31,989 bases of DNA from an uncultured Planctomycetales bacterium (GCA_964390905.1 CAYMLO010000119.1:1-31989), one strand, 5' to 3'; positions 2,728-23,604 are shown, counted from the first letter of the stretch. The notes: generated by a model from the letters alone, not told the origin. Program-made: numbers and translations.

Positions 2728-2812
2728 ATGAGCGTCCTTGCCCCTGCCTGCCAGGAACGTCTATCCTCTGGGGGGTGTAGAGTTCGCGTCGCGCCGTCCA
2801 GGACCAGAAGCG

Positions 2813-7952: not shown

Positions 7953-7957
7953 GGGCC

Positions 7958-8575: not shown

Positions 8576-9112
8576 CTACTCCGAGGGCGGCGTGGCGTCG
8601 CGCATCATGTACATGACCTTCCACTCGCCCTCCTGGCAGACCTCGTTGCGCTGATTCATCACCTTCACGTCGAACGTGACGATGCCCAGGCCGGGCTTGC
8701 TGGTGGTTCGCTTGCTGGCGATGGTCTGTATGACGTAGATGGTATCGCCGATGAAGACGGGGTTTCTGAAATCCCACGTCAGGCCGAGGAAGGCGACGAT
8801 CCGGTGCTGATCCGCCCCGGGCATGCGCGCCGCCAGCCCCGACGCGAGCGACAAGCCCAGCAGGCCGTGCGCGATCCGCTGACCGAAGGGGGTGATCTTG
8901 ACGAACTCGGCGTCGGTATGGATCACGTTGAAATCGCCGGACAGCCCCGCGAAGTTGACGATGTCCGTTTCGGTGACCGTCCGTGCCGGCGACGTCGTCT
9001 CATGCCCGACCGCGACGTCCTCGTAGTGAACACCATCTGAAACGTCCACGCGTTCGTCCTTTCCGTAAGTCAGGTCCGCCGGCCCAACGAGCCCTGGGTC
9101 GGGTAGGCTCAC
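8576..9112 (-). CDS. MaoC-like (R)-specific enoyl-CoA hydratase/dehydratase, hot-dog fold.
   Basis: FAGLSGDFNVIHTDAEFVK....GQRIAHGLLGLSL....GDTIYV is the MaoC dehydratase signature. 178 aa. The start codon is GTG at 9112 with no strong RBS, so the start is uncertain. Confidence 0.78.
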   Translation of the reverse strand: MSLPDPGLVGPADLTYGKDERVDVSDGVHYEDVAVGHETTSPARTVTETDIVNFAGLSGDFNVIHTDAEFVKITPFGQRIAHGLLGLSLASGLAARMPGADQHRIVAFLGLTWDFRNPVFIGDTIYVIQTIASKRTTSKPGLGIVTFDVKVMNQRNEVCQEGEWKVMYMMRDATPPSE

Positions 9113-9254: not shown

Positions 9255-10403
9255 TCACATCGTCCGCTTGACGATCTCTCGGGCGATGATGAGGCGCTGG
9301 ATCTCCGAGGTGCCGGCGCCGATGACGCCGAGCTTGGCGTCACGCATCATCCGCTCGACTTCGTATTCCTGCATGTACCCGTATCCGCCGTGAATCTGGA
9401 CGGCTTCGGAGGCGGCCCGCATGGCCGCCTCGGACGCGAACAGCTTGGCGTGCGACGCCTCGGCCGAGCAGCGGACCCCGCGATCACACAGGTCGGCGGC
9501 TTTGTAGGTGAGCATCCGAGCGGCCTCGAGTTCCATGCTCATGTTGGCCAGCTTCTCGGCGACCATCTCGAACATCACGATGGGCTGCCCGAACTGCTGC
9601 CGTTCCTTGGCGTAGGCGATCGACTTGTCGAGCGCCGCCTGGATCATGCCCACCCCCAACGCGCCGCCGACTGCCCGCTCGACGTCGAGCCCGCCGAGCA
9701 GGATCCCCAGCGCTTCGTTTTCGCCCTTCACCAGGTTCTCGGTGGGCACGCGGCAGTCTTTGAAGAACAGCTCGCCCGTCGGCGATCCGCGGACGCCCAT
9801 CTTGTGCAGCGGCTCGCCGACCGAGAATCCGGGAAAACACCGCTCGATGATGAAGAAGCTGATGCCGCGGGGGCCGGCCTCCTTGTCCGTCCGGGCGTAG
9901 ACCAGAAAGACGTCGGCCACCGGGGCGTTGGTGATGAACGTCTTGCTGCCGTTCAGGACGTACTCGTCCCCTTGCCGGACCGCCGAGGTGGTCAGAGACA
10001 GCACGTCCGACCCCGCGCCCGGCTCGGTCATGGCAAGAGACCCCAGCTTCTTGCCACTGGCCAGGTCGGGCAGGTACTTCTGCTTCTGCTCCTCCGAGCC
10101 ATTGCACGCGAGCGAATGGTTGACCAACACTGCGGACGCCAGGTACGACAACGCCGTGGAGGGGCAGGCGTACGTGACCTCCTCGGCGATCAGGCAGCAC
10201 GTCAGAACCGATTGGTCCGTCCCGCCGTACGCTTCCGGCACCAGCACGCCCATCAGGCCCAGCTCGCTCATTTTCTTGAACGTCTCGACCGGGAACCGCG
10301 ACTCGCGGTCGACCTCCGCGGCCAGCGGCGCGATCTCGTTCCTTGCAAACTTGCGGACCATGTTCTGGATGTCGCGCTGCTCGTCGGTCAGGCTGAAATC
10401 CAT
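9255..10403 (-). CDS. Acyl-CoA dehydrogenase (FAD-dependent).
   Basis: MDFSLTDEQRDIQNMVRKFARNEIAP....YGGYGYMQEYEVERMMRDAKLGVIGAGTSEIQRLIIAREI, canonical ACAD N- and C-terminal blocks. The track start at 10448 adds 15 residues. ATG at 10403 is preceded by GGAAGGAG, so it was chosen (382 aa). Confidence 0.9.
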   Translation of the reverse strand: MDFSLTDEQRDIQNMVRKFARNEIAPLAAEVDRESRFPVETFKKMSELGLMGVLVPEAYGGTDQSVLTCCLIAEEVTYACPSTALSYLASAVLVNHSLACNGSEEQKQKYLPDLASGKKLGSLAMTEPGAGSDVLSLTTSAVRQGDEYVLNGSKTFITNAPVADVFLVYARTDKEAGPRGISFFIIERCFPGFSVGEPLHKMGVRGSPTGELFFKDCRVPTENLVKGENEALGILLGGLDVERAVGGALGVGMIQAALDKSIAYAKERQQFGQPIVMFEMVAEKLANMSMELEAARMLTYKAADLCDRGVRCSAEASHAKLFASEAAMRAASEAVQIHGGYGYMQEYEVERMMRDAKLGVIGAGTSEIQRLIIAREIVKRTM

Positions 10404-10436
10404 GGGTGTTGCTCCTTCCTGCCCGCCGCGAGACGG

Positions 10437-10473
10437 TTGACGGGGCATTGCGTGGTGACGTGCGGAACGTCAA
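10437..10473. promoter_or_regulatory. Candidate operator in the divergent ACAD-operon / Gfo promoter region: TGACG half-sites (TTGACG, GTGACG) and an inverted CGTCAA.
   Basis: Seen in sequence: ttGACGgggcattgcgtgGTGACGtgcggaaCGTCAa. TGACG-N7-CGTCA is a 5-bp inverted repeat. It lies 35-70 nt upstream of the ACAD start on the minus strand. No regulator gene is adjacent. Confidence 0.2.
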
Positions 10474-11892: not shown

Positions 11893-13908
11893 CTACTTCA
11901 CCCGCTCGGGCTTCGCGAAGTCGCTGGTCATTTCGACCGGTAGGCGGAAGACGTCGCCGTCTTTGTTGCAGAAGTACAGCCGGGAGTCCGATGGCCGTCG
12001 GCCGTGCCCGTCGGCCCAGAAGGCGTAGAAGTCCGGGTGGGCGTGGACGGGTCGGCGGACGTAGGTGTGGTTGTACGCGCTGTCCTGGGTCATCTGGCGC
12101 GTCATCTTCCAGTGTCTGCCCTGGTCGCGGCTGACCCACATGGCCACCTCACCCCCCGGGTTGAAGGGCTGCGGCCCGGTCTGCGTCGGGCCGATGATCC
12201 GCCACGCGTTCTCGGCCTCGATATAGATCGACCCGGTGTCGTAGTTGTTGTCCGAGATGATGTCACCGCCTTGCACGTCCCATTCCGTGCCGGTCCACCG
12301 AGCGGTGGTCCAGGTTCGCGGCATGTTTTTCGGGCCGGACTCATAGCCCTTGCTCGTGACGTAGAGGATGATGGGGTGGCCCTTGGCGTCGAAGTTGATG
12401 TCTTTCAGATAGACATTGAGCCGCTTGCTTTCGTACTCGCAGGCCAGCGCCGGATTGTCGGCCTTGGACAGCATCAATTCGAGCGCCTGGCCCTGAACGC
12501 TCTTCCAGGTCTCCCCGAAGTCGTCTGATTCCATGTAGTAGAGGTTGGTCCGCCAGTTCAAGCCCTTGGTATCCGGATGGTAGTTGAAGGCGATGCCGAC
12601 CTTCTTGTCTTGGTAGCACCGGCTGATCTGGTAGTGGCCGCGGGCAATCCTCGAGAGGAACCGACGCTCGGACCAGTTCACCCCGTCCGGGCTGGTCATC
12701 ATGCAATTGGACCGGCCCTCGGTGTAGTGCGTGTGGATGAACAGGAACCCCCTGCCCGGCAGGTACCAGGGATGAGGATAGGAGTAGTTGCCCTCCCAGA
12801 CACATTCGAACTGATCGACGGCGTGCGGCTTGGTGCTTCTTGAGATGTAGGACGGCCGGCTGGTCCCGTGGCTGCTGGAGAAGATCCAGATCGTGCCCTT
12901 GTCGTCGACGCTGATGACGGGATTGTCGTGGGCGTCGCTGGTCTTCTTGTCCAGCAGGAGGGTCGGGCGGGGGACCTGGCCGGTCCTGTGGTCGTAGTAG
13001 GAGACCATGTGGACCAGCGCGGTGTTGCTGCCTTTCCTGGTTCCGCCGTAGGTGAAGAAGGTCTTGTCGGCCTGCTTGACGTACCAGGCATGGGGGATGT
13101 GCTTGGCGCAGTAGGTGCCCAGCCCGCCGCTGTACTTGTATTTGTACTCGTCGTTGGAGCGTTGGTTGTAGTACCAGATCCCGCGGTAGCCGTCGTCCTT
13201 TCGGTTCATGATCAAGGCCGCCTTCTTCGCACGCCTGGCTGTCAGCGTACCGGGCGCCTGACTGGCCCACGTCTGCCCGGCCAGCCCGGCCTGGGTCCAT
13301 CGCCCGGCCAGTCCCTTGTCGAGATCTCCGTTTTGCTTGCCGGCGGCGACGGCGGCAATCTCCTCGTCACACAACACGCGTCGCCAGAGTCGGACGTCGG
13401 CCAACCAGCCATTCACGAAGCGATCGCTCTCGTTCAGGGCGCCGATGAACAGATCTCCCGACGGAACGGTCATCTTGCCCGGCGCCTTGGTCGTGGCCGT
13501 CAGCTTGCCGTCCCGGTAGGCCTTAATCACCTTGCCGTCGTAGCTGCCGGCGTAGTGCACCCAGATGTTGGCCTTGGGGGACGGGGCGGTGGCATGGGCG
13601 TAGGCGGGATCCTGGTGCCCGACGAGCATCCGCACGTTCCCTTTGTACAGATAGAACGTAAAGACATTGTTCGCCCGACCGCAGTTCAAGAAGACCTGTG
13701 ATCCCCCAGCCGATCGCAGCTTGACCCAGGCCGAGACGGTGATGGCCTGCGGATTGAGGGCGACGGCCCTGGCGGGAACGTGGTAGGCCGTCCTGCCGTC
13801 AAACGCGACGCCGTCGGCTGGCGCCGCGAGTGCAGCCGCACACGATCCCATCACGGTTGCGCAGGCGAATAGAAGACGTGCCCACCATCGACTGCATCGA
13901 TCCCTCAT
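11893..13908 (-). CDS. Secreted protein with an N-terminal LamG / concanavalin-A-like lectin domain followed by a BNR_4-like beta-propeller; putative polysaccharide-active enzyme.
   Basis: Signal peptide MRDRCSRWWARLLFACATVMGSCAAALAAPA. The LamG pattern is SAWVKL...FIGAL...GWLADVRLWRRVL. The second domain is rich in aromatic and Gly residues (YYNQRSNDEYKYKYSGG...FSSSHGTS). The track start at 13968 is GTG and overlaps the upstream gene. ATG at 13908 gives the signal peptide directly. Confidence 0.6.
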   Translation of the reverse strand: MRDRCSRWWARLLFACATVMGSCAAALAAPADGVAFDGRTAYHVPARAVALNPQAITVSAWVKLRSAGGSQVFLNCGRANNVFTFYLYKGNVRMLVGHQDPAYAHATAPSPKANIWVHYAGSYDGKVIKAYRDGKLTATTKAPGKMTVPSGDLFIGALNESDRFVNGWLADVRLWRRVLCDEEIAAVAAGKQNGDLDKGLAGRWTQAGLAGQTWASQAPGTLTARRAKKAALIMNRKDDGYRGIWYYNQRSNDEYKYKYSGGLGTYCAKHIPHAWYVKQADKTFFTYGGTRKGSNTALVHMVSYYDHRTGQVPRPTLLLDKKTSDAHDNPVISVDDKGTIWIFSSSHGTSRPSYISRSTKPHAVDQFECVWEGNYSYPHPWYLPGRGFLFIHTHYTEGRSNCMMTSPDGVNWSERRFLSRIARGHYQISRCYQDKKVGIAFNYHPDTKGLNWRTNLYYMESDDFGETWKSVQGQALELMLSKADNPALACEYESKRLNVYLKDINFDAKGHPIILYVTSKGYESGPKNMPRTWTTARWTGTEWDVQGGDIISDNNYDTGSIYIEAENAWRIIGPTQTGPQPFNPGGEVAMWVSRDQGRHWKMTRQMTQDSAYNHTYVRRPVHAHPDFYAFWADGHGRRPSDSRLYFCNKDGDVFRLPVEMTSDFAKPERVK

Positions 13909-13931
13909 TGTGGTAGACCCCGTAGCTGAAC

Positions 13932-15869
13932 TCACTGCTTGCAGAACTTGTACCCCTCGATCCCCCACGGCGGGAGGTTGGTCGTGGTGATCTTGCTGGT
14001 GCTCTTTTTGCAGGGATGAACCTTGCCCGTTGCCGCGTCGATCCTGCCGACCTGATACGCACCCGTCATGCCGAGCACGTCCGGGTTCAGGCCTATCTCG
14101 GCCGTGCCCGCCTTCTGTCCCAGGTTCGCCACGATCAACAGATAGGTGTCCTTGCTCGCCTTGTACACCACGCTGTGGAACGCTGGCTCCGAGGACGTCG
14201 CGGCGACGACGTTCTGCCCGGGCGTGTTGAACACGGCGGCCCGCTCGACGTCGATCTGGGCCAGGACTCGCCAGTAGGGCAGGATGAAGTCGTAGAGTGC
14301 GTCATCGGGTGCGCAGCCGAACACCAGGCCTTTGGTGTGTCGGGCCTTGATTCCCAGGACCAGGTGCGGGTAGAGACCCCACGCAGCCATCTTCGCCATG
14401 CCCTCGGCGTTCCGGTACCTGGGAAGGTCCAGCATCCAGGGCATACACACCCCGCCGCCCAGCATGCCCTTGTACGCCGCCTCGTCCAGACCGGAGAGCA
14501 TCTTGCGGTCCGACCCGGTCTCGCCGGGCAAGTACGCATCGAAGCACAGATTGGCGAGCACGCCGGAATTGAACGAGCCCTGATGACCGATCAAGAACCC
14601 CTCGGGCCCGACGATGTCCCGGAGTTGTCTGGTGAACAGGAAGTAGGCCCGAGCGGGGACATGCGTGCCGGTCTTGGAGAAATGCGTGTCACCCAGTGGG
14701 GTCTCTGGTTTGTATCTATTGTCATGATAAGAGGTTGCGCCAGGTCCGTGCCAGTCGACGTAGATGCCGTCCCAGTTGCGCTTGCAGTACTTCTGGAAGA
14801 ATCGGGTCTTGAGGGCGTACGGCTCGACGCCGCGCATGTAGAGGCCGACGCGGAGCCCCTTGCGGTGCGCGTAGTCGATCATGCGAACCATGTCCTTGTG
14901 GTTCCGGACCACGGCGTAGTCTGCGTGGGGATAACCGTTGCTGCCGCGCTGCAGCATCCATTCGTGGTGGAGGATCAGCATCGTGGCGTGCCGGGCGACC
15001 ATCTTGTCGATCTGCTCGTTGCTGGGGTACCAGTCCTTCGTGTCGAGCCAGTTGACCCAATGGTAGACGCGCTGTCCGATGACATTGCTCTTGGGCTTGC
15101 CCGTGACGGCGGCGCCCAGGCCCAGCGCGATCCGGTTCTGGTATCGGAGCGGCGCGGCCAGGGCTGCGTCGCCCCCACCCAAGGTCCAGGTGACCCGTCC
15201 GTCCTTCTGCTGGAAGCCCACCGCTCCGCCGATGGCCTTCTTATGCTCGACGATCACCTCGATCTCGTTGGTGAAGCTCCGTGCGGGGTGCTTGCTCGTG
15301 CCGAAGGCCGCGCGGGCGGATGGGAATCCGCCGGTCTTGATGGACACGTTGCGGTCGCGGTACTTGGGACCCTTTCGGACCGCTTCAGACACGGCGAATG
15401 ACACGCTTGCGCAGGATAGGGCAAAGGGCTTGTCTTCCAGGCGGGCGTCCAGATCGATGAACACCGCACCCTCGGGATGGATCTCATAGGACAGAGCGAT
15501 CTGCCACGGACCTGCCGCGCCATCCGCGGTACGGGGTCTGCCCTGCACCGCGATGCTGACCTTCTCGGGCCTGCCCGACAGCTTGAGCAGCTTGGCCTCT
15601 GCGTCGTTGGCGAGGGCGTAGGTGCGGTCCTTGTCCTGCAGCTCGAGCCTGGGGAACGTGGTCTCGGGTGCTGTCAAGGCAGTGTTCCATCCGGATCCGT
15701 CGTGGAGCTGCAGTTTGGAGATCTCGCCTCCCCTTGCCAGATCGACCACGAGGACGAAGTGATCGCCGCGCACCTTGACGGCTCGCTCGTCCCGCTGGAC
15801 CGACAACCCGCCGCGCGCAGCAGGGGCAATCGCCATTACCGCGAACAGCAGCGCAACCGGTGTTTTCAT
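13932..15869 (-). CDS. Secreted hypothetical protein, 645 aa. Putative glycoside-hydrolase-like TIM-barrel protein; family not recognised.
   Basis: Signal peptide MKTPVALLFAVMAIAPAARG. Central region with alternating beta/alpha character and conserved acidic and aromatic residues (LILHHEWM, GLRVGLYMRG, DGIYVDWHG). Long ORF with coding-type GC3 bias. Function inferred only weakly. Confidence 0.55.
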   Translation of the reverse strand: MKTPVALLFAVMAIAPAARGGLSVQRDERAVKVRGDHFVLVVDLARGGEISKLQLHDGSGWNTALTAPETTFPRLELQDKDRTYALANDAEAKLLKLSGRPEKVSIAVQGRPRTADGAAGPWQIALSYEIHPEGAVFIDLDARLEDKPFALSCASVSFAVSEAVRKGPKYRDRNVSIKTGGFPSARAAFGTSKHPARSFTNEIEVIVEHKKAIGGAVGFQQKDGRVTWTLGGGDAALAAPLRYQNRIALGLGAAVTGKPKSNVIGQRVYHWVNWLDTKDWYPSNEQIDKMVARHATMLILHHEWMLQRGSNGYPHADYAVVRNHKDMVRMIDYAHRKGLRVGLYMRGVEPYALKTRFFQKYCKRNWDGIYVDWHGPGATSYHDNRYKPETPLGDTHFSKTGTHVPARAYFLFTRQLRDIVGPEGFLIGHQGSFNSGVLANLCFDAYLPGETGSDRKMLSGLDEAAYKGMLGGGVCMPWMLDLPRYRNAEGMAKMAAWGLYPHLVLGIKARHTKGLVFGCAPDDALYDFILPYWRVLAQIDVERAAVFNTPGQNVVAATSSEPAFHSVVYKASKDTYLLIVANLGQKAGTAEIGLNPDVLGMTGAYQVGRIDAATGKVHPCKKSTSKITTTNLPPWGIEGYKFCKQ

Positions 15870-16155
15870 TGGAAGCTCCTGAGATCAACCGCATGCCCGC
15901 GCGCCGAACGTGGCGCGCGAAGCCGACCCTTCCGTATTCGTGTCCGACGACTATACCCACGCTCGGGTCGAAGCGAAAGGCGACGCGGCGAGCGGATCCG
16001 CCGTGCTTACGGATGACCTCTCGCAGATCCCATGGCGCCCTTCTGGTAGACTGGTATGGCGCCCTGCGGCGGCTTGGCCGGCTGTGTCGGATCGGGCACC
16101 GCCGGAGGGCCTTGGCACGGTGAGTCCCGGGCGAGGCCGGGAGGCAGGTTGCCGC

Positions 16156-17226
16156 ATGAACACACAGACCCCCCAGCGCATGGGATTCGCCTGCGCCTAC
16201 ACGCCCCTCCCGATTATCGATGCGGCCGGCTTCGTGCCCTTTCGCGTGCTGCCCATGGGCGACGCTCCGGATCAGGCCGGATCGTTCTTGCACGACAACA
16301 TCTGTCCCCATGTCAAGCGGGTCCTCGACCGCGCGTTGGGCGGCGACGTGCCCGAACTGGCCGGCGTGGTCTTGATGAATAGCTGCGACGCGATGCGACG
16401 GGTGTCGGATGCCTGGGCGACGGCCCGACCGGCGGATCGGGTCATCACGCTCGACCTGCCCATCGCATGCGACGACACGTCCGTGGCCCACTTCAAAGCG
16501 GAACTCGCACGGCTGATGGAGCGCCTCTCGGAATGGTCGGGTCGTCCGGTGACGGTCGAGGAGGTCGTTCAGAGCGTTGATCGCTACAACGCGTTGGCAG
16601 CCGGGCTGGAGCGCCTCGCTGACTACGCAGCAGTGGGCGCTCTGTCCGGGGGGCACCGGGTCCTCCAGGAGATCTTTAACCGATCGGTGACCCGGTCGGT
16701 GGACGAATCCCTGACCGAACTGGACCGGTTGGCGGCCGGGCAAGGCGATTCTCAACAGACCGATCCGGGCGTGCCGGTGCTCTTGTTCGGCAACGTGCTG
16801 CCGGACCCGGAGGCGCTTGAACTGCTCGAGGCCTGTGGCTGCCGTGTCGTGGCCGATGACGTCTGCACGGGGTCGAGGCAACTGGTGTGCTACCAGCTCG
16901 ACGGCCAGGAGGACCCGTTGGCGCAGCTTGCCCATGCGATCCTGTCCAGGCCGGCGTGTGCGCGGACGCTCGTCAGCCCGCAGGCGGGACTCTTGGCCGG
17001 GCAGGTGGCGGCTCGGGCGAGAGAATGTGGAGCGAAGGGCGCGATCGCCCACGTGATGAAGTTCTGTGACCCCTATTTGGCCCGGCTACCGGCCATCCGA
17101 GACGCGCTTCGTGAGGCCGGCCTGCCCCTGCTCGTGCTGGAGGGTGACTGCACGCTGCGGTCGCTGGGTCAACACCGAACGCGGATCGAGGCCTTCGTCG
17201 AGATGCTGGGAGGGTCCCCGCCATGA
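16156..17226 (+). CDS. 2-hydroxyacyl-CoA dehydratase / benzoyl-CoA reductase family D-component subunit (HgdB/BcrB-like, PF06050).
   Basis: N-terminus MGFACAYTPLPIIDAAGFVPFRV (the family's CxYxPxEIIxAAG start). Conserved Cys ligands ICPH, MNSCDAMRR, KFCDPY. The track start at 15910 adds about 80 residues of low-complexity sequence. ATG at 16156 is preceded by GGGAGG, so it was chosen. Confidence 0.75.
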   Translation: MNTQTPQRMGFACAYTPLPIIDAAGFVPFRVLPMGDAPDQAGSFLHDNICPHVKRVLDRALGGDVPELAGVVLMNSCDAMRRVSDAWATARPADRVITLDLPIACDDTSVAHFKAELARLMERLSEWSGRPVTVEEVVQSVDRYNALAAGLERLADYAAVGALSGGHRVLQEIFNRSVTRSVDESLTELDRLAAGQGDSQQTDPGVPVLLFGNVLPDPEALELLEACGCRVVADDVCTGSRQLVCYQLDGQEDPLAQLAHAILSRPACARTLVSPQAGLLAGQVAARARECGAKGAIAHVMKFCDPYLARLPAIRDALREAGLPLLVLEGDCTLRSLGQHRTRIEAFVEMLGGSPP

Positions 17227-18473
17227 TATTGCCCTACATCAAGGAGCTGGCCGCCGGGATTGAGGCGTCGCTTCGCTCGGATCCGAACCAGGACAGCGCT
17301 CGCAAGCGATTCACGCTCGAGATCGCCCGGCTCGGCATCCGGTTGTTTTCCGGCGAGGAGCGGGTGGCCTGGTGTGGGGTCTTTGCGCCCTTCGATCTTC
17401 TGACGGCCGTGGGGGTGACCTCGTGCTTTGCCGAGTTCGTGGGGGGCTGGTTGGCGACCATCGGGGCGGTTCAGCCCATGCTGGAAAAGGCTGAGCAGGC
17501 GGGGTACTCGACGGACTCGTGCAGCTACCATCGGGGCGTCATCGGTGCTGCTTTGGAGGGCATGATGCCCGAGCCGGACTTCCTGATTGCCACCTCGACG
17601 CCGTGCAGTGGCGGCATGGCGACCACCGAGAACCTTTCGCGGCATTTCAGCAAGGACCTGTTTACGATCCACATCCCGCGTGACGACGGCCCGGAGGGCG
17701 TGAAGTACTTGGCTGATCAGTATCGCGCCATGGTTGACTTCGTCACCGCGCAGATCGGCCAGCCTATGGATGCGGCGCGCCTGCGACAGGCCATGGAGAA
17801 GACCAACCGGGCGCGGGCCCTGCTGGACGAGGCGTACGCGTTGGCCCAGGCGGTGCCCACGCCAGCCCGCCGCCGCGATATGAGCAACCTTGGCATCGTG
17901 CTTCCGCTTCTGTTTGGCTCCGAGGCGGGAATCGAGGTCGCCCGAGCCTACCGCGACGAGTTCGCCCGAAAGGTCAAGGCCAAGATCGCCGGTGTGCCCG
18001 GCGAACGGATCCGGCTGATGTGGTTGCAGAATCGCATTCAGTTCAGCAACCCCCTGGAACAGTGGCTCGAAGAGGAGCATAAGGCGGTGCTGGTCTTCGA
18101 CGAACTCAACCAGATCTGCTGGGACCCGATCGATCTGGAGGATCCCTACATCGGTTTGGCTAGGCGGGCGCTGTCGATTCCCTTGGGCGGTCCGATCGAG
18201 CGCCGGATCAGGAACCTACAGCAACACGCGCGGGCCTACCGGGTGGACGGCGCGATCAACCCCTGCCATTGGGGGTGCCGTCAGGGCACCGGCGGCCGGG
18301 GCCTGGTCGAGCGGGGCCTAAAAGAGGTCGGCGTGCCTGTGTTGAACCTGGAGGTCGACTGCGTCGACCCCAGGCATTTCTCGGAAGGTCAGCTCAGGAC
18401 TCGCCTCGAGGCCTTCATCGAGATGATCGAAGGCAGGGGAGCGGGGGGCGCGAGACTGGAGGTGGCGAGCTGA
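17223..18473 (+). CDS. 2-hydroxyacyl-CoA dehydratase family D-component, large subunit (HgdA/BcrC-like).
   Basis: CSYHRGVIG, TPCSGGMATT and INPCHWGCRQG Cys motifs typical of HgdA-type subunits. ATGA start/stop overlap with the upstream subunit gene suggests translational coupling. 416 aa. Confidence 0.75.
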   Translation: MILPYIKELAAGIEASLRSDPNQDSARKRFTLEIARLGIRLFSGEERVAWCGVFAPFDLLTAVGVTSCFAEFVGGWLATIGAVQPMLEKAEQAGYSTDSCSYHRGVIGAALEGMMPEPDFLIATSTPCSGGMATTENLSRHFSKDLFTIHIPRDDGPEGVKYLADQYRAMVDFVTAQIGQPMDAARLRQAMEKTNRARALLDEAYALAQAVPTPARRRDMSNLGIVLPLLFGSEAGIEVARAYRDEFARKVKAKIAGVPGERIRLMWLQNRIQFSNPLEQWLEEEHKAVLVFDELNQICWDPIDLEDPYIGLARRALSIPLGGPIERRIRNLQQHARAYRVDGAINPCHWGCRQGTGGRGLVERGLKEVGVPVLNLEVDCVDPRHFSEGQLRTRLEAFIEMIEGRGAGGARLEVAS

Positions 18474-19307
18474 ATGGGGATCGGGTTTCGGGGCCCGGGG
18501 TCCGAGGCGAGTGGGTTCGACATGTATTATCTTGGCGTAGACATTGGCAGCTTGACGTGTGATGCGGTCCTGATCGACGAGGACGGGTGGGTGATGGCCT
18601 GGTCGGTGGTTCCGACGGGCGCGAGCAGTGTCCGGGCTATCGATCGTGTGCGGGCCGAAGTACTCGGCGCTGCTGGGATCAGGTCGGAGGATCTGGGCGC
18701 CGTGATCTCGACCGGCTACGGCCGGGATCGCGTTGACGGACGATTGGCGGCGGTGACCGAGATCACCTGCCACGCCCGGGGGATTCAGAGGTTACTGCCC
18801 GGCACCGAGATGTTGGTGGACATCGGTGGCCAAGACAGCAAGGCCGTCCGCCTCGACGGGGAGGGGCGGGTGGTGGAGTTCGCGATGAACGACAAGTGCG
18901 CGGCCGGGACGGGGCGATTCCTGGAGGCGATGGCCCGCGCGCTGGAGGTGGAGGTGGATCAGCTAGGCGGCCTGGACGACGGAGCGCGGGGCAACCTGAC
19001 ACTGAGCAGCATGTGCACGGTATTCGCAGAGAGCGAGGTGGTCTCGCTGATCGCCGAGGGGACCGACGTGTCCGAGATCGCGCGGGGCCTACACCGAGCG
19101 ATTGCTTCGCGGACCCAGGCGTTGGTCAAGCGGGTCGATCCTGCGGTTTCGGGTCTCCGTGTGGCGATGTCCGGCGGCGTAGCGCGAAACCCCGGCGTGG
19201 TCCGGGCGCTCGGCGCCGCCTTGGACTGCGACATCACCGTGCCCCCCGAGCCCGACATCGTCGGCGCCCTGGGCGCCGCCCTCATCGCCCGAGAGCGCGC
19301 CGGCTAG
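18474..19307 (+). CDS. CoA-substrate-specific enzyme activase (BadF/BadG/BcrA/BcrD/HgdC ATPase family); electron-transfer activator for the dehydratase.
   Basis: MYYLGVDIGSLTCDAVLID (ASKHA phosphate-1). ISTGYGRD. DIGGQDSKAV. MNDKCAAGTGRFLE. SGGVARNPGVVRALGAAL. The two Cys probably bridge the [4Fe-4S] cluster. The start may instead be the internal ATG at 18519. Confidence 0.85.
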   Translation: MGIGFRGPGSEASGFDMYYLGVDIGSLTCDAVLIDEDGWVMAWSVVPTGASSVRAIDRVRAEVLGAAGIRSEDLGAVISTGYGRDRVDGRLAAVTEITCHARGIQRLLPGTEMLVDIGGQDSKAVRLDGEGRVVEFAMNDKCAAGTGRFLEAMARALEVEVDQLGGLDDGARGNLTLSSMCTVFAESEVVSLIAEGTDVSEIARGLHRAIASRTQALVKRVDPAVSGLRVAMSGGVARNPGVVRALGAALDCDITVPPEPDIVGALGAALIARERAG

Positions 19308-19381: not shown

Positions 19382-20527
19382 TCAGTCCGGGATTCTCCGC
19401 GCGCCCGCGACCGCATCCAGCTCGATCTCGAAGAGCAGGTCGTCGCGACAGATGTCGTCGTTGACGAGCACCGCGGGCAAGGCCTGGATCCCATGCTCTG
19501 CACAGTAGCCCCCCAGCGCTGGGATGTCCTCACTGTGCTTGAAGTAGGCGATGGCGCGCGAGACGTCGGCCCACCCCATGTCCCGCGACGCCAGGATGGC
19601 CTCGACCACCTCCATGGTCAGCGCCAGCTGGCCGGTCGCGTCGCCACCGTGAACGGTGTGTCCCTCGGGGGCGATACTGGCCGTACCGGAGACGAACAGG
19701 CGTCGATGATCGGGCGTGGCGAACTCAACCGCCCGACTGAACGAGCTACCGTACTCCAACGCCGGGCACTGGAGGGGAGACGGCACAGCGATGGCCTGCG
19801 CCTCCTGTCCTTTGGCCCTGACGGCCAGCAGCCCGCACGTCAGTGCGGCGCCGGCCGGATTCCGTCCGCCCACCCCCGTGCTGGCCGGTACCAAACCGTC
19901 GAAGACCCCCCGCTCTCGGAAGAAGGTATCTCGCGCCGTGTTGAACTGGCCATACCACGACAGGATGTCGTCATTGCAGAACCAGGTACGCAGCACATGT
20001 CCGAAGTTCATGCCCGTCGTCCGCAGGCCCGCCTCCATCTGTACGAAGACATCGCGGGCCTGCGCGTCCCGAGGCTGGGAGGCGTCCGCCGACACCAACC
20101 CGCCAAGACGGCAGTACTGTGCATGGTCATCCTCGAACAGACACCCCAGAACCCTGTCGCCCATCCGAAGCGGTTCGACCTGCGCGCCCGTGACCGCCCA
20201 GAGCTGCGTGCCGCCGACGTTGTCCAGGTCGCCGTTCTCGACCCAGGTCACGGGCCAGGCGACCTCGCCCAGCGTGGCGGTCAGCTTGCCCGTGCCAGAG
20301 CCGTTCCGCTCGCGCAGGCCGAAGACCTCCTGCGAGACGACGCCGGCGCGCCGGTCACGCACGGCGCCGGCGGCCCTCTCGAACATCGCCTCGGGGGGCT
20401 CGTCGCCGATGCGAACTGCGGTGACGAAGTGCTCCTCGCACGACGATCTTCGAAGCGTGACGATCTGGAGGTCCGCAGACACGCTCCGGTGCACTTCAGC
20501 CGTTGACGCGGCCTCATCACGTCTCAT
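19382..20527 (-). CDS. Tandem YjgF/RidA-like (endoribonuclease L-PSP fold) domain protein.
   Basis: The C-terminal half (LFVSGTAS....GDATGQLALTMEVVEAILAS....DVSRAIAYF....DDLLFEIELDAVA) has the RidA signature including the terminal FEIE motif. The N-terminal half shows a weaker second copy. The track start at 20548 is GTG. ATG at 20527 is preceded by GGAGAGGAAG, so it was chosen. Confidence 0.65.
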   Translation of the reverse strand: MRRDEAASTAEVHRSVSADLQIVTLRRSSCEEHFVTAVRIGDEPPEAMFERAAGAVRDRRAGVVSQEVFGLRERNGSGTGKLTATLGEVAWPVTWVENGDLDNVGGTQLWAVTGAQVEPLRMGDRVLGCLFEDDHAQYCRLGGLVSADASQPRDAQARDVFVQMEAGLRTTGMNFGHVLRTWFCNDDILSWYGQFNTARDTFFRERGVFDGLVPASTGVGGRNPAGAALTCGLLAVRAKGQEAQAIAVPSPLQCPALEYGSSFSRAVEFATPDHRRLFVSGTASIAPEGHTVHGGDATGQLALTMEVVEAILASRDMGWADVSRAIAYFKHSEDIPALGGYCAEHGIQALPAVLVNDDICRDDLLFEIELDAVAGARRIPD

Positions 20528-21086
20528 TCTGCTTCCTCTCCGACACACGCGCGCTCGCCCTGGTCCACCGGCAGAGAACAGCTTCGGTCGGATCGCGTGC
20601 GTGCGCCATCCTCGCGAGACGACGTTACTCCCTCGAAGTCAGGGGGGGCAGCGGGCTCATCATGGCGGCGAAGCTTGTCCTGCATCCGGAGAGTATACCA
20701 CCACCCAGGTCCTCTCCCCAACCTTGGTGCTCGTCCGCTCGTCCCGAGCGCGACAAGAACCCACACATTCGGGCGAACCGCCCGCTCTGGTCGCATTCTA
20801 CAGACTGCGGCGGATCAATTCCAATACGCCAGACGGTTTATACTGGCCGGGCGCCGCCTGCGGAGGTATAGATATTCATAGTCTGACATGTGCCCAAGAA
20901 CAGATCATCGCCTATCCGACCAGAACGCGGGTGTCCGAGCCCGTCCTTCGCACGAGGCGGAGGGCGGGCACCCAGAGATGGATGCTTGACAGGCGAGCGG
21001 GGCTTGGTTGACATGGTTCGGCAAGTACTTTCCGCCGGCGGGTCCGGCTGCGAAGCGGGCTGACGCTGGCGCGAGGGCAGACGCCG

Positions 21087-21869
21087 ATGTTTACAGTATA
21101 TGCCGTCTGTGCCGCGGTTGGTGGGACGATCCTGGTGTGTCAGTTCGTCCTGACGGTTCTGGGCCTGATCGGGGATGGACACGACGTCGCCGACGGCGGC
21201 CATGACGTAGGCGACGTAGGGCATGACGTCGGTGACGTCGGCCACGACGTGGCCGTGGCCGATCACGATCTGGTCGACGTTGCTCATGACGTGGGCGACG
21301 CCGGTGTTCACGTGGCCGAGGTCGGGACCGACGCGGCTCACGGGGGAGCCGCAGACGCGCACGTCGACGCCCATCACCACGGGGCCGATTGGCACGCCCA
21401 TCACCCCGGTGCGCAGGCCCAGACGCACGGCCCGTCGGCGTTCTTCAAGATCTTGACCTTCCGAACCGTCGTCGCTGGGATCGCGTTTTTCGGTCTGGCG
21501 GGCCTGGCGGGATCGGCCAGTTCGCTGGCGGGATACGTGACGCTTCTGGTCGCGGTGGGCGCCGGGTTGGGGGCCGTTTACCTAGTTCATGAGATGATGC
21601 GGGCACTGGCCAAGCTGAGGTCCGAGGGAACCGTCTACATCGGCCGGGCCGTCGGTGCGACCGCGACCGTCTATCTCACCGTCCCCGGCAACAAGGCCGG
21701 CATGGGCAAGGTCACGGTTGTCCTACAGGACCGCACGATGGAATATCAGGCGATGACGGAATACGAGGAGCTGGCCACCGGGACCGAGGTGGTCGTCACT
21801 GGTTTGCTCGGCCCGGGTACCGTAGAGGTCGAGTTGGCACCAGATGCCGGGAGTACTGAATATGTGTGA
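21087..21869 (+). CDS. NfeD-like membrane protein (flotillin/stomatin-operon partner, C-terminal OB-fold) carrying an inserted His/Asp-rich repeat region.
   Basis: N-terminal TM (VYAVCAAVGGTILVCQFVLTVLGLIG). Second hydrophobic block (FFGLAGLAGSASSLAGYVTLLVAVGAGLGAVYLV). C-terminal NfeD OB-fold (GTVYIGRAVGATATVYLTVPGNKAGMGKVTVVLQDRTMEYQAMTEYEELATGTEVVVTG). It lies immediately upstream of, and overlaps, the flotillin gene. Confidence 0.7.
   Translation: MFTVYAVCAAVGGTILVCQFVLTVLGLIGDGHDVADGGHDVGDVGHDVGDVGHDVAVADHDLVDVAHDVGDAGVHVAEVGTDAAHGGAADAHVDAHHHGADWHAHHPGAQAQTHGPSAFFKILTFRTVVAGIAFFGLAGLAGSASSLAGYVTLLVAVGAGLGAVYLVHEMMRALAKLRSEGTVYIGRAVGATATVYLTVPGNKAGMGKVTVVLQDRTMEYQAMTEYEELATGTEVVVTGLLGPGTVEVELAPDAGSTEYV
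21175..21410 (+). repeat. In-frame tandem repeat within the NfeD gene, roughly a 21-nt unit (catgacgt[c/a]gg[c/t]gacgt[c/a]gg), encoding (G)HDVGDV heptads and a His-rich tail.
   Basis: Seen in sequence: ggccatgacgtaggcgacgtagggcatgacgtcggtgacgtcggccacgacgtg... translating to HDVADGGHDVGDVGHDVGDVGHDVAVADHDLVDVAHDVGDAGVHVAEV....HVDAHHHGADWHAHHPG. Confidence 0.6.
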
Positions 21870-23604
21870 GTTGTTGGCCCAGCTAGAGGATCTTGGCGTC
21901 GAGAGCAACGCGTTGTGGATCGGCGTGATCGTCGTCTTCGTCGCGATTGTGTTCTTCACGTTCGTGTCGTTGCTGACCCGGCGGTACAAGCGGTGCCCCA
22001 GTAACAACGTCCTGGTCATCTACGGGAAGGTCTCGCGGGGCGTGAGCGCCAACTGCGTCCACGGTGGGGCCGCGTTCATCTGGCCGCTCGTCCAGGACTA
22101 CGCGTACCTCAGCCTCGAGCCGATGCAGATCGAGATCCCGCTGAAGGGCGCGCTGTCCAGCGAGAACATCCGCGTCAACGTGCCCAGCGTCTTCACCGTG
22201 GCGATCGGGACGCAGCCCGAGGTGATGCAGAACGCCGCCATCCGGCTGCTGGGCCTCAACGCAGCCGAAATCAGCCAGCAGGCCCAGGACATTATCTTCG
22301 GTCAGCTCCGGCAGGTGATCGCCTCGATGCAGATCGAGGACATCAACCGCGATCGCGAGAAGTTCCTGCAGAACATCCAGACATCGCTCGAGCCGGAGCT
22401 CCAGAAGATCGGGCTGGTGCTGATCAACGTCAACATCACCGACATCACCGACGAGTCGGGCTATATCGAGGCCATCGGTCGCAAAGCCGCTTCGCAGGCG
22501 ATCCAGCAGGCCCGCGGCGACGTGGCCGACCAGGAGAAGATGGGCGAGATCCGCGTCGCCGAGGCCGAGCGCGAAAAGGCCGTCCAGGTCGCCAACGCCC
22601 AGAAGCTCCGTCAGATCGGCACCCGCGAGGCCGAGCGCGACCAGGCAGTGCGGCTTGCCGAGCTGGAAAAGGAGCAGAAGGTCGGCGAGCAGACCGCCGC
22701 CTACGAGCGCGACGCCCAGGTCAAGGAGGCCGAACGCGAGCAGGCCGTCCGCATCGCCAACCTGGACAAGGAGCAGAGGATCGGCGAGGAGACGGCCGCC
22801 CTGCAGCGCGAGGCCCAGGTCAAGGATGCCGATCGGTCCAAGCGGATCGCCGTGGCCGAGGCGAACGCCCTGGCGGTCACGGGCGAGAACGAGTCGCAGG
22901 CGAAAATCGCGGCCTCCAAGGCTGATCTGCAGGTCAAGCAGGCCGAGGCCTACGAGTTGGGTGAGACCCGAAAGCGTGAGGCCGAGGCCGCCGTCCTCGA
23001 GGCCCAGAACCGCGCGATGGCCAAGGCCGCCCTCGCCGACGCTGAACGCGTCGAGGCCGAGAAACGCGCCGACCTCGAGGCCACCGCCAAGGCCGAGAAG
23101 GCCCGAATTGTCGTTCAGGCCCAGGCCGAAGCGGAGAAACGACGCGTCGAGGCCGAGGGCGAGGCCGCCGCCATCTTCGCCAAGCTCGAGGCGGAGGCCA
23201 AGGGCGAGTACGAGATCCTCGCCAAGAAGGGCCAGGGCCTCCAGCAGATCATCGACGCCTGCGGCGGGTCGCGCGAGGCCTTCCAGATGCTCATGCTGGA
23301 GCACCTCGACGCCCTGGCCAGCACGGCCGCCCAGGCCATCTCCAACATCAAGTTCGATAAGGTGATCGTCTGGGAGAACGGCAGCCCCAACGGGAGGAGC
23401 AACACGGCCAACTTCCTGAGCAACCTGTCCCACGCCCTGCCGCCCATGCTCCAGGTCATGAAGGACATCGGCGGCGTGGAGCTGCCGGAATCCCTGATCA
23501 AGCTGAGAGGCGACGCCGAGCCCGACGTTGCCGCCGACAGCTCAGCGCCTGCGACGCCTGCCGAGGCCGAGGGATCGGCCCAGGACGGAGACGGGAAGGC
23601 GTGA
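21862..23604 (+). CDS. Flotillin (SPFH/band-7 domain, FloT/YuaG-like) with an extended Glu/Ala-rich coiled-coil repeat region.
   Basis: N-terminal hydrophobic hairpin (LWIGVIVVFVAIVFFTFV). SPFH core (NVLVIYGK....IRVNVPSVFTVAIG....LRQVIASMQIEDINRDREKF). Then repeated EAEREKAVQVANAQKL / EAERDQAVRLAELEKEQ / EAEREQAVRIANLDKEQ flotillin-type coiled coil. The track ATG at 21844 is possible. ATG at 21862 has GGGAG 8 nt upstream and was chosen. Confidence 0.85.
   Translation: MCELLAQLEDLGVESNALWIGVIVVFVAIVFFTFVSLLTRRYKRCPSNNVLVIYGKVSRGVSANCVHGGAAFIWPLVQDYAYLSLEPMQIEIPLKGALSSENIRVNVPSVFTVAIGTQPEVMQNAAIRLLGLNAAEISQQAQDIIFGQLRQVIASMQIEDINRDREKFLQNIQTSLEPELQKIGLVLINVNITDITDESGYIEAIGRKAASQAIQQARGDVADQEKMGEIRVAEAEREKAVQVANAQKLRQIGTREAERDQAVRLAELEKEQKVGEQTAAYERDAQVKEAEREQAVRIANLDKEQRIGEETAALQREAQVKDADRSKRIAVAEANALAVTGENESQAKIAASKADLQVKQAEAYELGETRKREAEAAVLEAQNRAMAKAALADAERVEAEKRADLEATAKAEKARIVVQAQAEAEKRRVEAEGEAAAIFAKLEAEAKGEYEILAKKGQGLQQIIDACGGSREAFQMLMLEHLDALASTAAQAISNIKFDKVIVWENGSPNGRSNTANFLSNLSHALPPMLQVMKDIGGVELPESLIKLRGDAEPDVAADSSAPATPAEAEGSAQDGDGKA

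Follow-up and report, generated by a model that had tools for sequence, protein, structure and literature searches.

A three-gene operon of the BCR/HAD/DCCP superfamily with a predicted double-cubane subunit in an uncultured Planctomycetales bacterium

Class I benzoyl-CoA reductases (BCR), 2-hydroxyacyl-CoA dehydratases (HAD) and double-cubane cluster proteins (DCCP) belong to one superfamily. Class I BCRs are stable four-subunit enzymes with two different ATPase subunits (BcrA/D or BzdP/Q), while the HAD layout comprises two D-type subunits and one homodimeric activator. The ligands of the [8Fe-9S] cluster of the BCR subunit BzdN have been listed, and the corresponding site of the dehydratase subunit HadC is a [4Fe-5S] remnant (both PMC11971306). 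The first-pass annotation of the DNA described here took the known functions of the family to be confined to amino-acid fermentation and aromatic-ring reduction, a view that is now outdated, since the family also includes DCCP, TudS and the lipid ester reductases PlsA/GeR (PMC11971306; PMC7317905; bioRxiv 10.1101/2022.04.21.487849).

The stretch analysed in this study (31,989 nucleotides; hereafter the window) contains three adjacent genes whose products probably make up a complete iron-sulfur radical enzyme of three components, driven by ATP and belonging to an uncharacterised clade of the superfamily, with a reductive reaction as the favoured reading.

Gene layout, host and surroundings

The features of the locus are as follows, with positions counted from the first letter of the window.

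15870-16155, + strand: intergenic region of 286 bp, 5' of the operon and shared divergently with a minus-strand gene at 13932-15869 (ORF map)
16156-17226, + strand: B gene (356 aa), PF06050, E = 6.8e-60
17223-18473, + strand: A gene (416 aa), PF06050, E = 9.6e-72
18474-19307, or from 18522, + strand: activase gene (277 or 261 aa), PF01869, E = 8.4e-58; TIGR00241

The ORF map returned three plus-strand genes at 16156-19307, exactly where they had been annotated, and the two couplings described were also present: an ATGA overlap at the B/A junction (17223-17226) and, at the A/activase junction, a TGA (18471-18473) with an ATG directly after it (18474). All three genes are intact and lie close together, and the set is complete as claimed, comprising a D-component pair and an activase from the BCR/HAD superfamily of radical enzymes. 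For the activase, ATG 18522 (261 aa) is a possible start in place of ATG 18474 (277 aa): the Met of the downstream start aligns with HadI Met1 and a close relative has a 261-aa gene call, while the upstream start has a GGAGG 9 nt before it. The intergenic region at 15870-16155 gave no sigma-70-like match and no Rfam match and contains no regulator gene, and MarR is absent from the window. The planctomycete host suggested at first agrees with DNA polymerase I, whose named best matches were all from Phycisphaerae or Planctomycetota, and the host is a Phycisphaerae-like planctomycete of the polysaccharide-degrading type. The window also contains a DUF1559/N_methyl gene, which was counted toward a planctomycete host.

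The distances described to ACAD, MaoC, thiolase-fold and CoA-ligase genes (~6 kb) and to glycan-type genes were borne out, but the link proposed between the operon and the acyl-CoA cluster is weak: the latter is a separate minus-strand operon with unrelated genes in between, and CoA-metabolism genes are rare near relatives of the operon. In a census of 84 related loci that covered AMP-binding, ACAD, MaoC, CoA-transferase, ECH and ETF genes, each of the first five families was present within 10 kb at no more than 4-6 loci (CoA-transferase at 4), and ETF at 2. The best model for the ACAD of the window is the acryloyl-CoA reductase AcrC, at 418 bits and below the cut-off of 640. In the window, no CoA-transferase or 2-hydroxyacid dehydrogenase gene adjoins the operon, including the hadA-type and ldhA-type genes, nor does acdB-etfBA. 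The gene calls around the operon include no ferredoxin gene, and no benzoyl-CoA or aromatic pathway genes are found among the annotated genes of the window.

Superfamily placement and predicted metal clusters

Membership of the two D-type proteins in PF06050 (HGD-D) is clear (203.9 and 242.8 bits, cut-off 28.4), yet scores against models of individual enzymes are far lower: 77.8 bits for NF052455 (HadB; cut-off 750), 93.3 for NF052456 (HadC; 700), 55.8 for BzdO (448.6), 49.2 for BcrB (486.6), 82.1 for BzdN (453.8) and 74.6 for BcrC (421.2). For both subunits the double-cubane protein model NF040772 ranks first among the NCBIfam models, with scores (117.2 and 90.2 bits) far short of its cut-off of 350, and none of 99 relatives scanned alongside A came near any NCBIfam equivalog cut-off. 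Solved HadB, BzdO and DCCP reach only 42-48 bits. The ortholog group collapses to one 50%-identity representative (604 bits), followed by Heimdallarchaeota (398 bits) and then by a continuum at 30-35% identity. In a neighbour-joining tree (40 bootstraps, HadB present as a fragment), the superclade of A has 85% support and lies outside the BzdO+BcrB+MbdO+HadB clade (100% support), while DCCP and YjiM form a separate clade, also with 100% support. As regards the phylogeny proposed as a check, HadB and HadC alone stand for the dehydratases in this tree. The identity first proposed stands at the level of the BCR/HAD superfamily, but the equivalog scores and the tree establish neither a dehydratase nor a benzoyl-CoA reductase. 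The operon belongs to the BCR/HAD/DCCP superfamily yet fits the definition of none of its characterised members.

Judged by its modelled fold (AlphaFold, pLDDT 87.5), A is the large, catalytic-type PF06050 subunit: the closest folds are HadB (TM 0.78/0.82) and BzdO (TM 0.79/0.76), with HadC, BzdN and DCCP lower at about 0.67. On alignment, A C100, C128 and C352 correspond to BzdO Cys95/128/380 and are invariant in 81 orthologs and 100 superclade representatives, and W50, E71 and the conserved Y102 correspond to BzdO Trp46, Glu65 and Tyr97. A is therefore predicted to hold a three-Cys [4Fe-4S] cluster with one open iron. Tyr97 of BzdO hydrogen-bonds the thioester oxygen, and its counterpart is Y102. 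Three other BzdO residues differ in A (Tyr298 to L295, His131 to G131, Gln274 to N270), of which His131 is missing from BcrB and MbdO too. The motifs quoted for A (CSYH, PCSGG, CHWGC) were all found, but C348 of CHWGC is at no known ligand position. It is one of four cysteines (C51, C68, C348, C380) kept in 75-81 of the 81 orthologs and specific to this clade, their conservation ending outside the ortholog group and not extending to the wider superclade.

The best solved relatives of B are BzdN (86.5 bits) and HadC (81.8 bits). Six of its cysteines, C13, C50, C77, C237, C268 and C304, match BzdN Cys36/73/100/263/293/327 in the alignment, and none of them varies among 68 orthologs. The CAY, NSCD and KFCD motifs quoted for B were all recovered, and the ligand set is complete on alignment as claimed, although the cysteines originally listed for B are only three of the six at conserved ligand positions. 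R30, R241 and R265 align with the distal-subcluster arginines of BzdN (Arg53/267/290); two of the three do not vary among the 68 orthologs, 48 of which have Arg at the remaining position. The full six-Cys double-cubane set is common to B, BzdN, DCCP and YjiM, whereas HadC, BcrC and MbdN lack Cys1 and Cys5 in the alignment, the two positions being Pro and Ala in HadC. Since B retains all six positions, the reduced, three-ligand [4Fe-4S]/[4Fe-5S] beta site of the HAD type is not matched, and the cluster predicted for B is an [8Fe-9S] double cubane of the BzdN type. The predicted metal-cluster make-up would then be nearer to that of a reductase than to that of classical dehydratases. B has one additional conserved cysteine, C332, beyond the BzdN set.

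The activase scores 227 bits against TIGR00241 (acyl-CoA dehydratase activase; cut-off 125). Its top solved match is HadI (4eht; 224 bits), followed by MbdQ, HgdC and DCCP-R, and it has both Cys motifs that bridge the cluster (NDKCAAGTGRF and CTVFAESE), aligned with those of HadI and MbdQ.

Orthologs that are 55-73% identical occur across many phyla, with metagenome-assembled genomes labelled Desulfobacterales, Syntrophales, Myxococcota, Planctomycetota, Spirochaetota, Nitrospirae, Gemmatimonadota and Binatia. These comparisons indicate a widespread, highly conserved and so far uncharacterised clade that is distinct within the BCR/HAD/DCCP superfamily. The usual arrangement is a MarR-B-A(-activase) module, with MarR directly upstream in at least 35 of 70 assessable loci and the activase directly downstream in at least 32 of 74, about half having no adjacent activase; both counts are minima, as genes called in loci L088 and L089 fell outside the position thresholds. 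No second ATPase gene was found in the window or in the orthologous loci, which have a single activase gene only. In L088 a Mo enzyme resembling EbdA lies next to the ortholog, together with an acyl-CoA ligase and an ACAD; in a few Desulfobacterales loci the orthologs have as neighbours a MaoC gene and a CoA-transferase similar to Pct/FadX; CoA ligases adjoin the Heimdallarchaeota sister clade and some orthologs; and a Desulfallas relative sits amid radical-SAM genes.

Possible reactions of the enzyme

The predicted components suggest a route for electrons. A HadI-like ATPase homodimer with one bridging [4Fe-4S] cluster would accept an electron from a low-potential donor of the cell, and ATP hydrolysis would presumably push it from the ATPase into the B-A heterodimer. 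There, the BzdN-type [8Fe-9S] double cubane that the alignment assigns to B would receive and store electrons. At the [4Fe-4S] cluster of A, with its one free iron beside the conserved Glu, Tyr and Trp, the carbonyl of a substrate that is probably of the thioester type would be converted to a ketyl or neutral radical. The operon thus most likely encodes a low-potential enzyme, a reductase or a radical enzyme, that is driven by ATP and has a substrate of the thioester type. A net reduction, or a reductive elimination, seems likelier than redox-neutral 2-hydroxyacyl-CoA dehydration, because the partners of dehydratase operons are absent and because, to our knowledge, the electron-storing double cubane predicted for B has so far been found only in reductases (BzdN, DCCP). 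However, Thauera-type BCRs reduce benzoyl-CoA though BcrC and MbdN lack the six-Cys set; reduction thus does not depend on a double cubane, and one in B would be no proof of a reductase. Two further findings count against the favoured interpretation, namely the single ATPase gene, which is the HAD/DCCP pattern and not that of BCR, and the top solved match of the ATPase, which is a dehydratase activator. The explanation as a whole must also accommodate the lack of conservation of BzdO His131 and Tyr298 in A and the many loci without an adjacent activase.

If the enzyme were a classical 2-hydroxyacyl-CoA dehydratase paired with its activator, serving a fermentative or hydroxy-acid pathway along the lines of the first-pass annotation and using lactoyl-CoA, 2-hydroxyglutaryl-CoA or some other 2-hydroxyacyl-CoA, this would account for the gene layout, the HadI-like activase, a fold of A that is equally near HadB and BzdO, and the three-Cys site, Glu, Tyr and Trp common to A and HadB. 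The AcrC-like ACAD of the window and the CoA-transferase and MaoC genes of the few Desulfobacterales loci point the same way. This reading is nevertheless unlikely, given the distance of both proteins from the HadB and HadC cut-offs, the position of A outside the HadB-containing clade, the retention in B of the two ligand cysteines lost in HadC, the scarcity of CoA-transferase genes near relatives, the lack of a CoA-transferase or 2-hydroxyacid dehydrogenase adjoining the operon, and a usual partner that is a MarR regulator and not a set of pathway enzymes. A minimal aryl-CoA reductase of class I (Bzd-like) that dearomatises, reductively dehydroxylates or dehalogenates a benzoyl-CoA analogue under BadR-like MarR control is very unlikely. 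The BzdO, BcrB, BzdN and BcrC models are all far under their cut-offs, A branches outside the BCR clade with Leu in place of the BCR-conserved Tyr298 and Gly in place of BzdO His131, a single ATPase gene replaces two distinct ones, no ferredoxin gene lies around the operon, the host is of a polysaccharide-degrading type, and no aromatic-pathway genes were seen in the window. These points are set against the six-Cys set and Arg environment common to B and BzdN, the top solved match of B, the accompanying MarR regulators, the many carriers among Desulfobacterales or Syntrophales, and the EbdA-like enzyme, ligase and ACAD beside the L088 ortholog.

A third alternative, a MarR-controlled, DCCP-like reductase of a small or non-CoA molecule (in detoxification, or in cofactor or lipid modification) that needs no CoA-activating enzyme, is likewise unlikely. 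The conserved unit is MarR-B-A(-activase) alone, without recurrent pathway neighbours, NF040772 is the top NCBIfam match for both subunits, one relative lies amid radical-SAM genes, and non-CoA enzymes are known in the family (DCCP, TudS and GeR/PlsA; PMC7317905; PMC11971306; bioRxiv 10.1101/2022.04.21.487849). However, the fold of A is the catalytic alpha/O-type of CoA-ester enzymes and not that of DCCP, A retains the counterpart of the thioester-oxygen-binding Tyr of BzdO, the NF040772 scores are well below the cut-off, the architecture is heterodimeric whereas DCCP is a homodimer, the PF09989 domain of GeR/PlsA is missing, and the Heimdallarchaeota sister clade and some orthologs have CoA ligases next to them. 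It is possible, and suggested here only tentatively, that MarR-B-A-activase represents a third functional class in the BCR/HAD family: a minimal two-electron reductase, driven by ATP and horizontally mobile, in which a BzdN-type double cubane feeds a [4Fe-4S] active site lined with extra thiols. If so, these thiols would be C51, C68, C348 and C380 of A and C332 of B, and the chemistry would be new to the family; examples are a reductive dehydroxylation, a reductive elimination and the reduction of a substrate that is not aromatic or not a CoA ester. On this tentative reading, a further redox or metal site might be built from the pseudo-symmetric extra cysteines of A and B (in 'E-x-D-C').

Comparison with known systems

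BzdNO of Aromatoleum sp. CIB (PDB 8S02; PMC11971306) is likewise a heterodimer of two PF06050 paralogs, with a small subunit having six cysteines at [8Fe-9S] positions and three distal arginines and a large subunit having a three-Cys [4Fe-4S] site with Glu65, Tyr97 and Trp46, all with equivalents here. Identity is only about 20-25%, A branches outside the BCR clade, and the extra conserved cysteines (C51, C68, C348 and C380 in A, C332 in B) set the two apart; the Bzd system has BzdP and BzdQ, compared to one ATPase gene in the window operon, which differs in this from class I BCRs in general. HadBC/HadI of Clostridioides difficile (PDB 3O3M, 4EHT) also combines two D subunits with a homodimeric HgdC-type ATPase, and HadB has the catalytic three-Cys site, Glu and Trp of A, but HadC has four of the six cysteines and a [4Fe-5S] remnant where B has all six (PMC11971306).

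DCCP/DCCP-R of Carboxydothermus hydrogenoformans (PDB 6ENO, 7YYL) and YjiM/YjiL of E. coli resemble the operon in the six [8Fe-9S] ligand cysteines of B and in the single homodimeric ASKHA ATPase partner. DCCP, however, is built from a single homodimeric protein that has a 7-Cys motif, whereas two diverged paralogs are found here, B having six of the seven cysteines and A only the three proximal ligands with certainty. The PlsA/GeR glycerol ester reductases are assembled from the same kinds of ATPase and HGD-D parts but with a wholly different domain architecture, as single fused polypeptides, GeR combining two PF01869 (BcrAD_BadFG) domains, PF09989 (DUF2229) and HGD-D fragments (bioRxiv 10.1101/2022.04.21.487849), while the window proteins are separate, with full-length HGD-D and no PF09989 match. 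These reductases show that the family is able to reduce non-CoA (lipid ester) substrates (bioRxiv 10.1101/2022.04.21.487849).

Operon structure, host and distribution

The operon B-A-activase encodes two PF06050 (HGD-D) subunits, here called B and A, and an ATPase of the activator type, and constitutes a genuine member of the superfamily that comprises benzoyl-CoA reductases (BCR), dehydratases (HAD) and double-cubane cluster proteins (DCCP). Its genes are as follows:

16156-17226, + strand: B, 356 aa, PF06050 full-length (E = 6.8e-60)
17223-18473, + strand: A, 416 aa, PF06050 full-length (E = 9.6e-72)
18474-19307, + strand: activase ATPase, 277 aa, PF01869 (E = 8.4e-58)

The ORF map and the sequence bear out the three coupled genes described in the first-pass annotation, including a 4-nt overlap (ATGA) between B and A and an A stop codon (TGA, 18471-18473) that is followed without a gap by ATG 18474; every motif quoted in that annotation was also found in the operon proteins. 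The start of the activase is ambiguous, and either of two positions is possible: a well-spaced GGAGG lies upstream of ATG 18474, while the alignment with the dehydratase activator HadI begins at ATG 18522 (Met17), and a relative from the same 90%-identity cluster carries a 261-aa gene call. No riboswitch or promoter was found in the 5' region of the operon.

The host is a planctomycete. GC content is even throughout the region, and public metagenome contigs of 55-198 kb carry the same three genes in an identical context. The named best matches of the DNA polymerase I (26254-29028, - strand) all belong to Phycisphaerae/Planctomycetota, with a top identity of 76%. Proteins combining prepilin N-methylation with DUF1559 are a hallmark of planctomycete genomes, and the DUF1559/N_methyl protein gene with a prepilin-type N-methylation motif at 29218-30345 (+ strand) therefore agrees with the Phycisphaerae assignment by DNA polymerase I.

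Genes for a relative occur at 220 loci in 185,579 species, each represented by one genome. The top 80 of these 220 show 54-73% identity, and the tight clade keeps 55-73% identity across at least eight phylum-level lineages. The MAG labels of the top 80 include Planctomycetales, Desulfobacterales, Desulfobacteraceae, Desulfomonile, Desulfosudis oleivorans and Syntrophales, as well as Myxococcota, Spirochaetota, Nitrospirae, Gemmatimonadota, Binatia and others; Desulfomonile tiedjei is a species label among the related loci. Clustering of all ORFs at related loci revealed the recurrent gene order MarR - B - A - activase, with MarR directly upstream at 35 of 70 assessable loci and the activase directly downstream at 32 of 74, both counts being lower bounds, since gene calls place MarR and an activase at L088, and MarR at L089 (two related loci), that fell outside the position thresholds. 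The window itself contains no MarR gene, and the search of NCBIfam for a MarR ligand gave only weak, uninformative matches. At 7 of the 74 loci, a hydantoinase_A-like ATPase gene followed by an HDAC-like gene replaces the activase. In Desulfobacterales MAGs (L023, L025, L026, L029, L030, L031, L033, L043 and L051), B-A is followed by a hydantoinase_A/oxoprolinase-like ATPase of about 561 aa, which is accompanied by a histone-deacetylase-family protein in place of the HgdC-type activase. This ATPase may be an alternative partner or an unrelated insertion.

Family position, subunit roles and cluster ligands

Neither B nor A reached any curated equivalog cut-off in NCBIfam, nor did any of 99 relatives scanned together with A come near one.

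NCBIfam scores of B and A and the corresponding cut-offs
B, double_cubane: 117 bits (cut-off 350)
B, HadC: 93 bits (cut-off 700)
B, BzdN: 82 bits (cut-off 454)
B, BcrC: 75 bits (cut-off 421)
A, double_cubane: 90 bits (cut-off 350)
A, HadB: 78 bits (cut-off 750)
A, BzdO: 56 bits (cut-off 449)
A, BcrB: 49 bits (cut-off 487)

The database names of relatives are all generic (e.g., '2-hydroxyacyl-CoA dehydratase subunit D'). Among solved structures, BzdN (86.5 bits) and HadC (81.8 bits) match B about equally well, followed by DCCP (62 bits); A reaches only 42-48 bits against HadB, BzdO and DCCP. The activase exceeds the cut-off of TIGR00241, 'acyl-CoA dehydratase activase' (227 versus 125 bits), contains both cluster-bridging Cys motifs, and among solved ATPases matches HadI best (224 bits), then MbdQ, HgdC and DCCP-R, the reductase of DCCP. 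In its AlphaFold model (pLDDT 87.5), A most closely resembles HadB (TM 0.78/0.82) and BzdO (0.79/0.76), both catalytic subunits, with a poorer fit to the accessory or DCCP type (TM about 0.67); on this model, A is the predicted substrate-binding subunit and B the predicted accessory subunit.

When 1.84 billion 50%-identity representatives were searched exhaustively, the entire ortholog group of A was recovered as one representative (604 bits). Next came two proteins, one from Heimdallarchaeota (45% identity, 398 bits) and another at 42% identity, beyond which lies a continuum of proteins with 30-35% identity to A; 234 representatives had E < 1e-30. The A clade is a tight, strongly conserved group within a much larger unexplored radiation. 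A neighbour-joining tree (40 bootstraps) was built from A-type and B-type sequences, YjiM, the BCR-type references BzdN/O, BcrB/C and MbdN/O (sequences from the supplement of PMC11971306), and HadB, HadC and DCCP rebuilt from HMMER alignments. In this tree, in which HadB and HadC alone represent the dehydratases and, like DCCP, are fragments, the A superclade (85% support) stands apart from a 100%-supported clade of BzdO, BcrB, MbdO and HadB, the B clade (100%) groups loosely with BzdN, BcrC, MbdN and HadC, and DCCP and YjiM form their own clade (100%).

The first-pass annotation had described full sets of cluster ligands, and these sets are complete on alignment; nor are B and A of the fused type that would place them with 'activase-associated' proteins. 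BzdN holds an [8Fe-9S] double cubane through Cys36/73/100/263/293/327 (BzdNO structure, 2025; PMC11971306). In the alignment, C13, C50, C77, C237, C268 and C304 of B occupy all six of these positions and are invariant in 68 orthologs. The Arg residues 53, 267 and 290 of BzdN, which encircle the distal subcluster (PMC11971306), have counterparts in R30 and R241 of B, both invariant, and in R265, which is Arg in 48 of 68 orthologs. DCCP and E. coli YjiM also possess the six Cys. The double cubane was lost in dehydratases, with HadC retaining a [4Fe-5S] remnant (PMC11971306), and two of the six Cys positions are occupied by Pro and Ala in HadC. Thauera-type BcrC and MbdN likewise lack Cys1 and Cys5 when their sequences from the PMC11971306 source data are aligned with B, indicating that the double cubane is not general to class I benzoyl-CoA reductases.

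In BzdO, a [4Fe-4S]-OH2 cluster is held by Cys95/128/380, Glu65 acts as acid/base beside the Fe-OH2, and Tyr97 forms a hydrogen bond with the thioester oxygen (PMC11971306). C100, C128 and C352 of A correspond to the three BzdO/HadB ligands and are invariant in 81 orthologs and 100 distant relatives, and W50, E71 and Y102 align with BzdO Trp46, Glu65 and Tyr97. A has Gly at the position of BzdO His131, Leu at the BCR-conserved Tyr298 and Asn at Gln274. Four further cysteines (C51, C68, C348 and C380) are conserved only within the tight clade of A. C51 and C68 lie within one residue of the first ligand and the 'seventh Cys' of DCCP in an ambiguous alignment, while C348 and C380 have no counterpart among solved members. 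C380 belongs to an 'E-V-D-C' loop that has a pseudo-symmetric counterpart, E-G-D-C332, in B; C332 is likewise Cys in 66 of 68 orthologs. Judging from the alignment, the match of W50 to the BzdO Trp that occupies the lost subcluster site argues against a second [4Fe-4S] subcluster, and hence a second cubane, formed by the extra cysteines of A.

Genomic context

The first-pass annotation had linked the operon to a nearby cluster of CoA genes:

2738-4516, + strand: FadD-like CoA ligase, convergent to the minus-strand acyl-CoA run
4562-5020, - strand: DUF35/ChsH2-like OB + zinc-ribbon protein
5555-6751 and 6810-7982, - strand: two SCP-x-type thiolase-fold proteins
7958-8572, - strand: PHP-domain protein
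8576-9112, - strand: MaoC hydratase
9255-10448, - strand: acyl-CoA dehydrogenase family (ACAD) protein

The minus-strand genes constitute a run of their own (10448-4562); between it and the operon lie the genes for a GFO/IDH/MocA oxidoreductase and for two secreted proteins of glycan type. Together with the ligase, the run forms a self-contained acyl-CoA module that resembles bulky-acyl-CoA thiolase/aldolase systems (steroid side chain or benzylsuccinate-type). The link found no comparative support at 84 related loci (phmmer with annotated references, within 10 kb; mean flank examined 13 kb), with AMP-binding and MaoC genes at 6 loci each, ACAD at 5, and CoA-transferase and ECH at 4 each; a conserved association was rejected on these counts.

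The genes directly flanking the operon are encoded on the minus strand, and neither is conserved at other loci. Divergent from the operon is a 645-aa protein (13932-15869, - strand) with a signal-peptide-like N-terminus and no Pfam/NCBIfam match, whose gene overlaps by 37 nt the stop end of the gene for a Laminin_G_3 + BNR_4 protein (11893-13968); it was found at 1 of 84 loci and was rejected as a conserved partner. Convergent with the activase is a 388-aa protein (19382-20548, - strand) with a C-terminal RidA/YjgF domain and a weak match to FkbO/Hyg5 chorismatases (70 bits, cut-off 325), which was also rejected, being beside the module in none of the other 83 loci. Further downstream, a 260-aa protein (21087-21869, + strand) contains a His/Asp-rich 'GHDVGDV' repeat block and hydrophobic segments, and its gene overlaps the start of that for an SPFH/Band 7 protein (21844-23604, + strand), which suggests a possible NfeD-like/SPFH pair with a metal-binding-looking repeat.

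The most pathway-like context was found once, at L088 (508-11084), a locus encoding a 66%-identical ortholog. Divergent from its MarR-B-A-activase genes are an EbdA-like Mo enzyme alpha subunit (ethylbenzene-dehydrogenase-like), an MtaA/URO-D-like protein, a FadD4-like CoA ligase and a PimD/IpdE2-like ACAD. The Heimdallarchaeota sister pair adjoins a CoA ligase. In Desulfallas sp. Bu1-1 (L086, 4089-9907), a relative of A (38% identity), with its B partner and an activase fragment, is encoded between radical-SAM genes, directly after one of the SPASM type and one of the B12-binding type; this suggests that part of the wider superclade serves to modify peptides or cofactors and not to break down CoA esters. 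These single contexts are suggestive, not recurrent.

Reaction type and comparison with known families

On the basis of homology to HadI/HadBC, DCCP-R/DCCP and BzdPQ/BzdNO (PMC7317905; PMC9351452; PMC11971306), ATP hydrolysis by the ATPase dimer would drive the injection of low-potential electrons, which the double cubane of B would take up and hold; the open-iron [4Fe-4S] cluster of A, together with E71 and Y102, would then generate a radical from a carbonyl, most likely that of a thioester. Within this overall model, the odds are roughly even that the enzyme performs a net reduction or a reductive elimination and not the classical dehydration of a 2-hydroxyacyl-CoA. In favour of this reading, double cubanes are so far known from reductases alone, the operon lacks the CoA-transferase, 2-hydroxyacid dehydrogenase and ETF genes that accompany dehydratases, and the clade falls outside that containing HadB. 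However, the ATPase is a single HadI-like protein, and Thauera-type BCRs reduce without a six-Cys subunit, both of which count against it. The alpha-hydroxy-acid dehydration proposed in the first-pass annotation finds no backing in the comparative data.

Enzymes of the BCR/HAD/DCCP superfamily operate at some of the lowest redox potentials in biology, performing Birch-type reductions and ketyl-radical eliminations. To our knowledge, only a handful of their reactions have been described, and family proteins without an assigned substrate are common in anaerobes. Literature searches on planctomycete or deltaproteobacterial 2-hydroxyacyl-CoA dehydratases, or by family name, found nothing on the A/B clade; a Geobacter paper reportedly concerns an orphan activase only. 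If the substrate were identified, ATP-driven Fe-S radical chemistry would gain a new reaction, and it would become clearer which strictly oxygen-sensitive metabolism is common to polysaccharide-degrading Phycisphaerae and sediment Desulfobacterales. The operon is a good target for Fe-S enzymologists.

Family by family, the operon proteins failed the defining features tested for HAD, class I BCR, DCCP and the lipid ester reductases PlsA/GeR, membership in the last being rejected on domain architecture. They are best placed in a subfamily of their own, uncharacterised and widely distributed, whose cofactor pattern is a hybrid of features that have so far been separate: a predicted double cubane of the Bzd type, a single activator as in HAD, and additional cysteines that are putative active-site residues.
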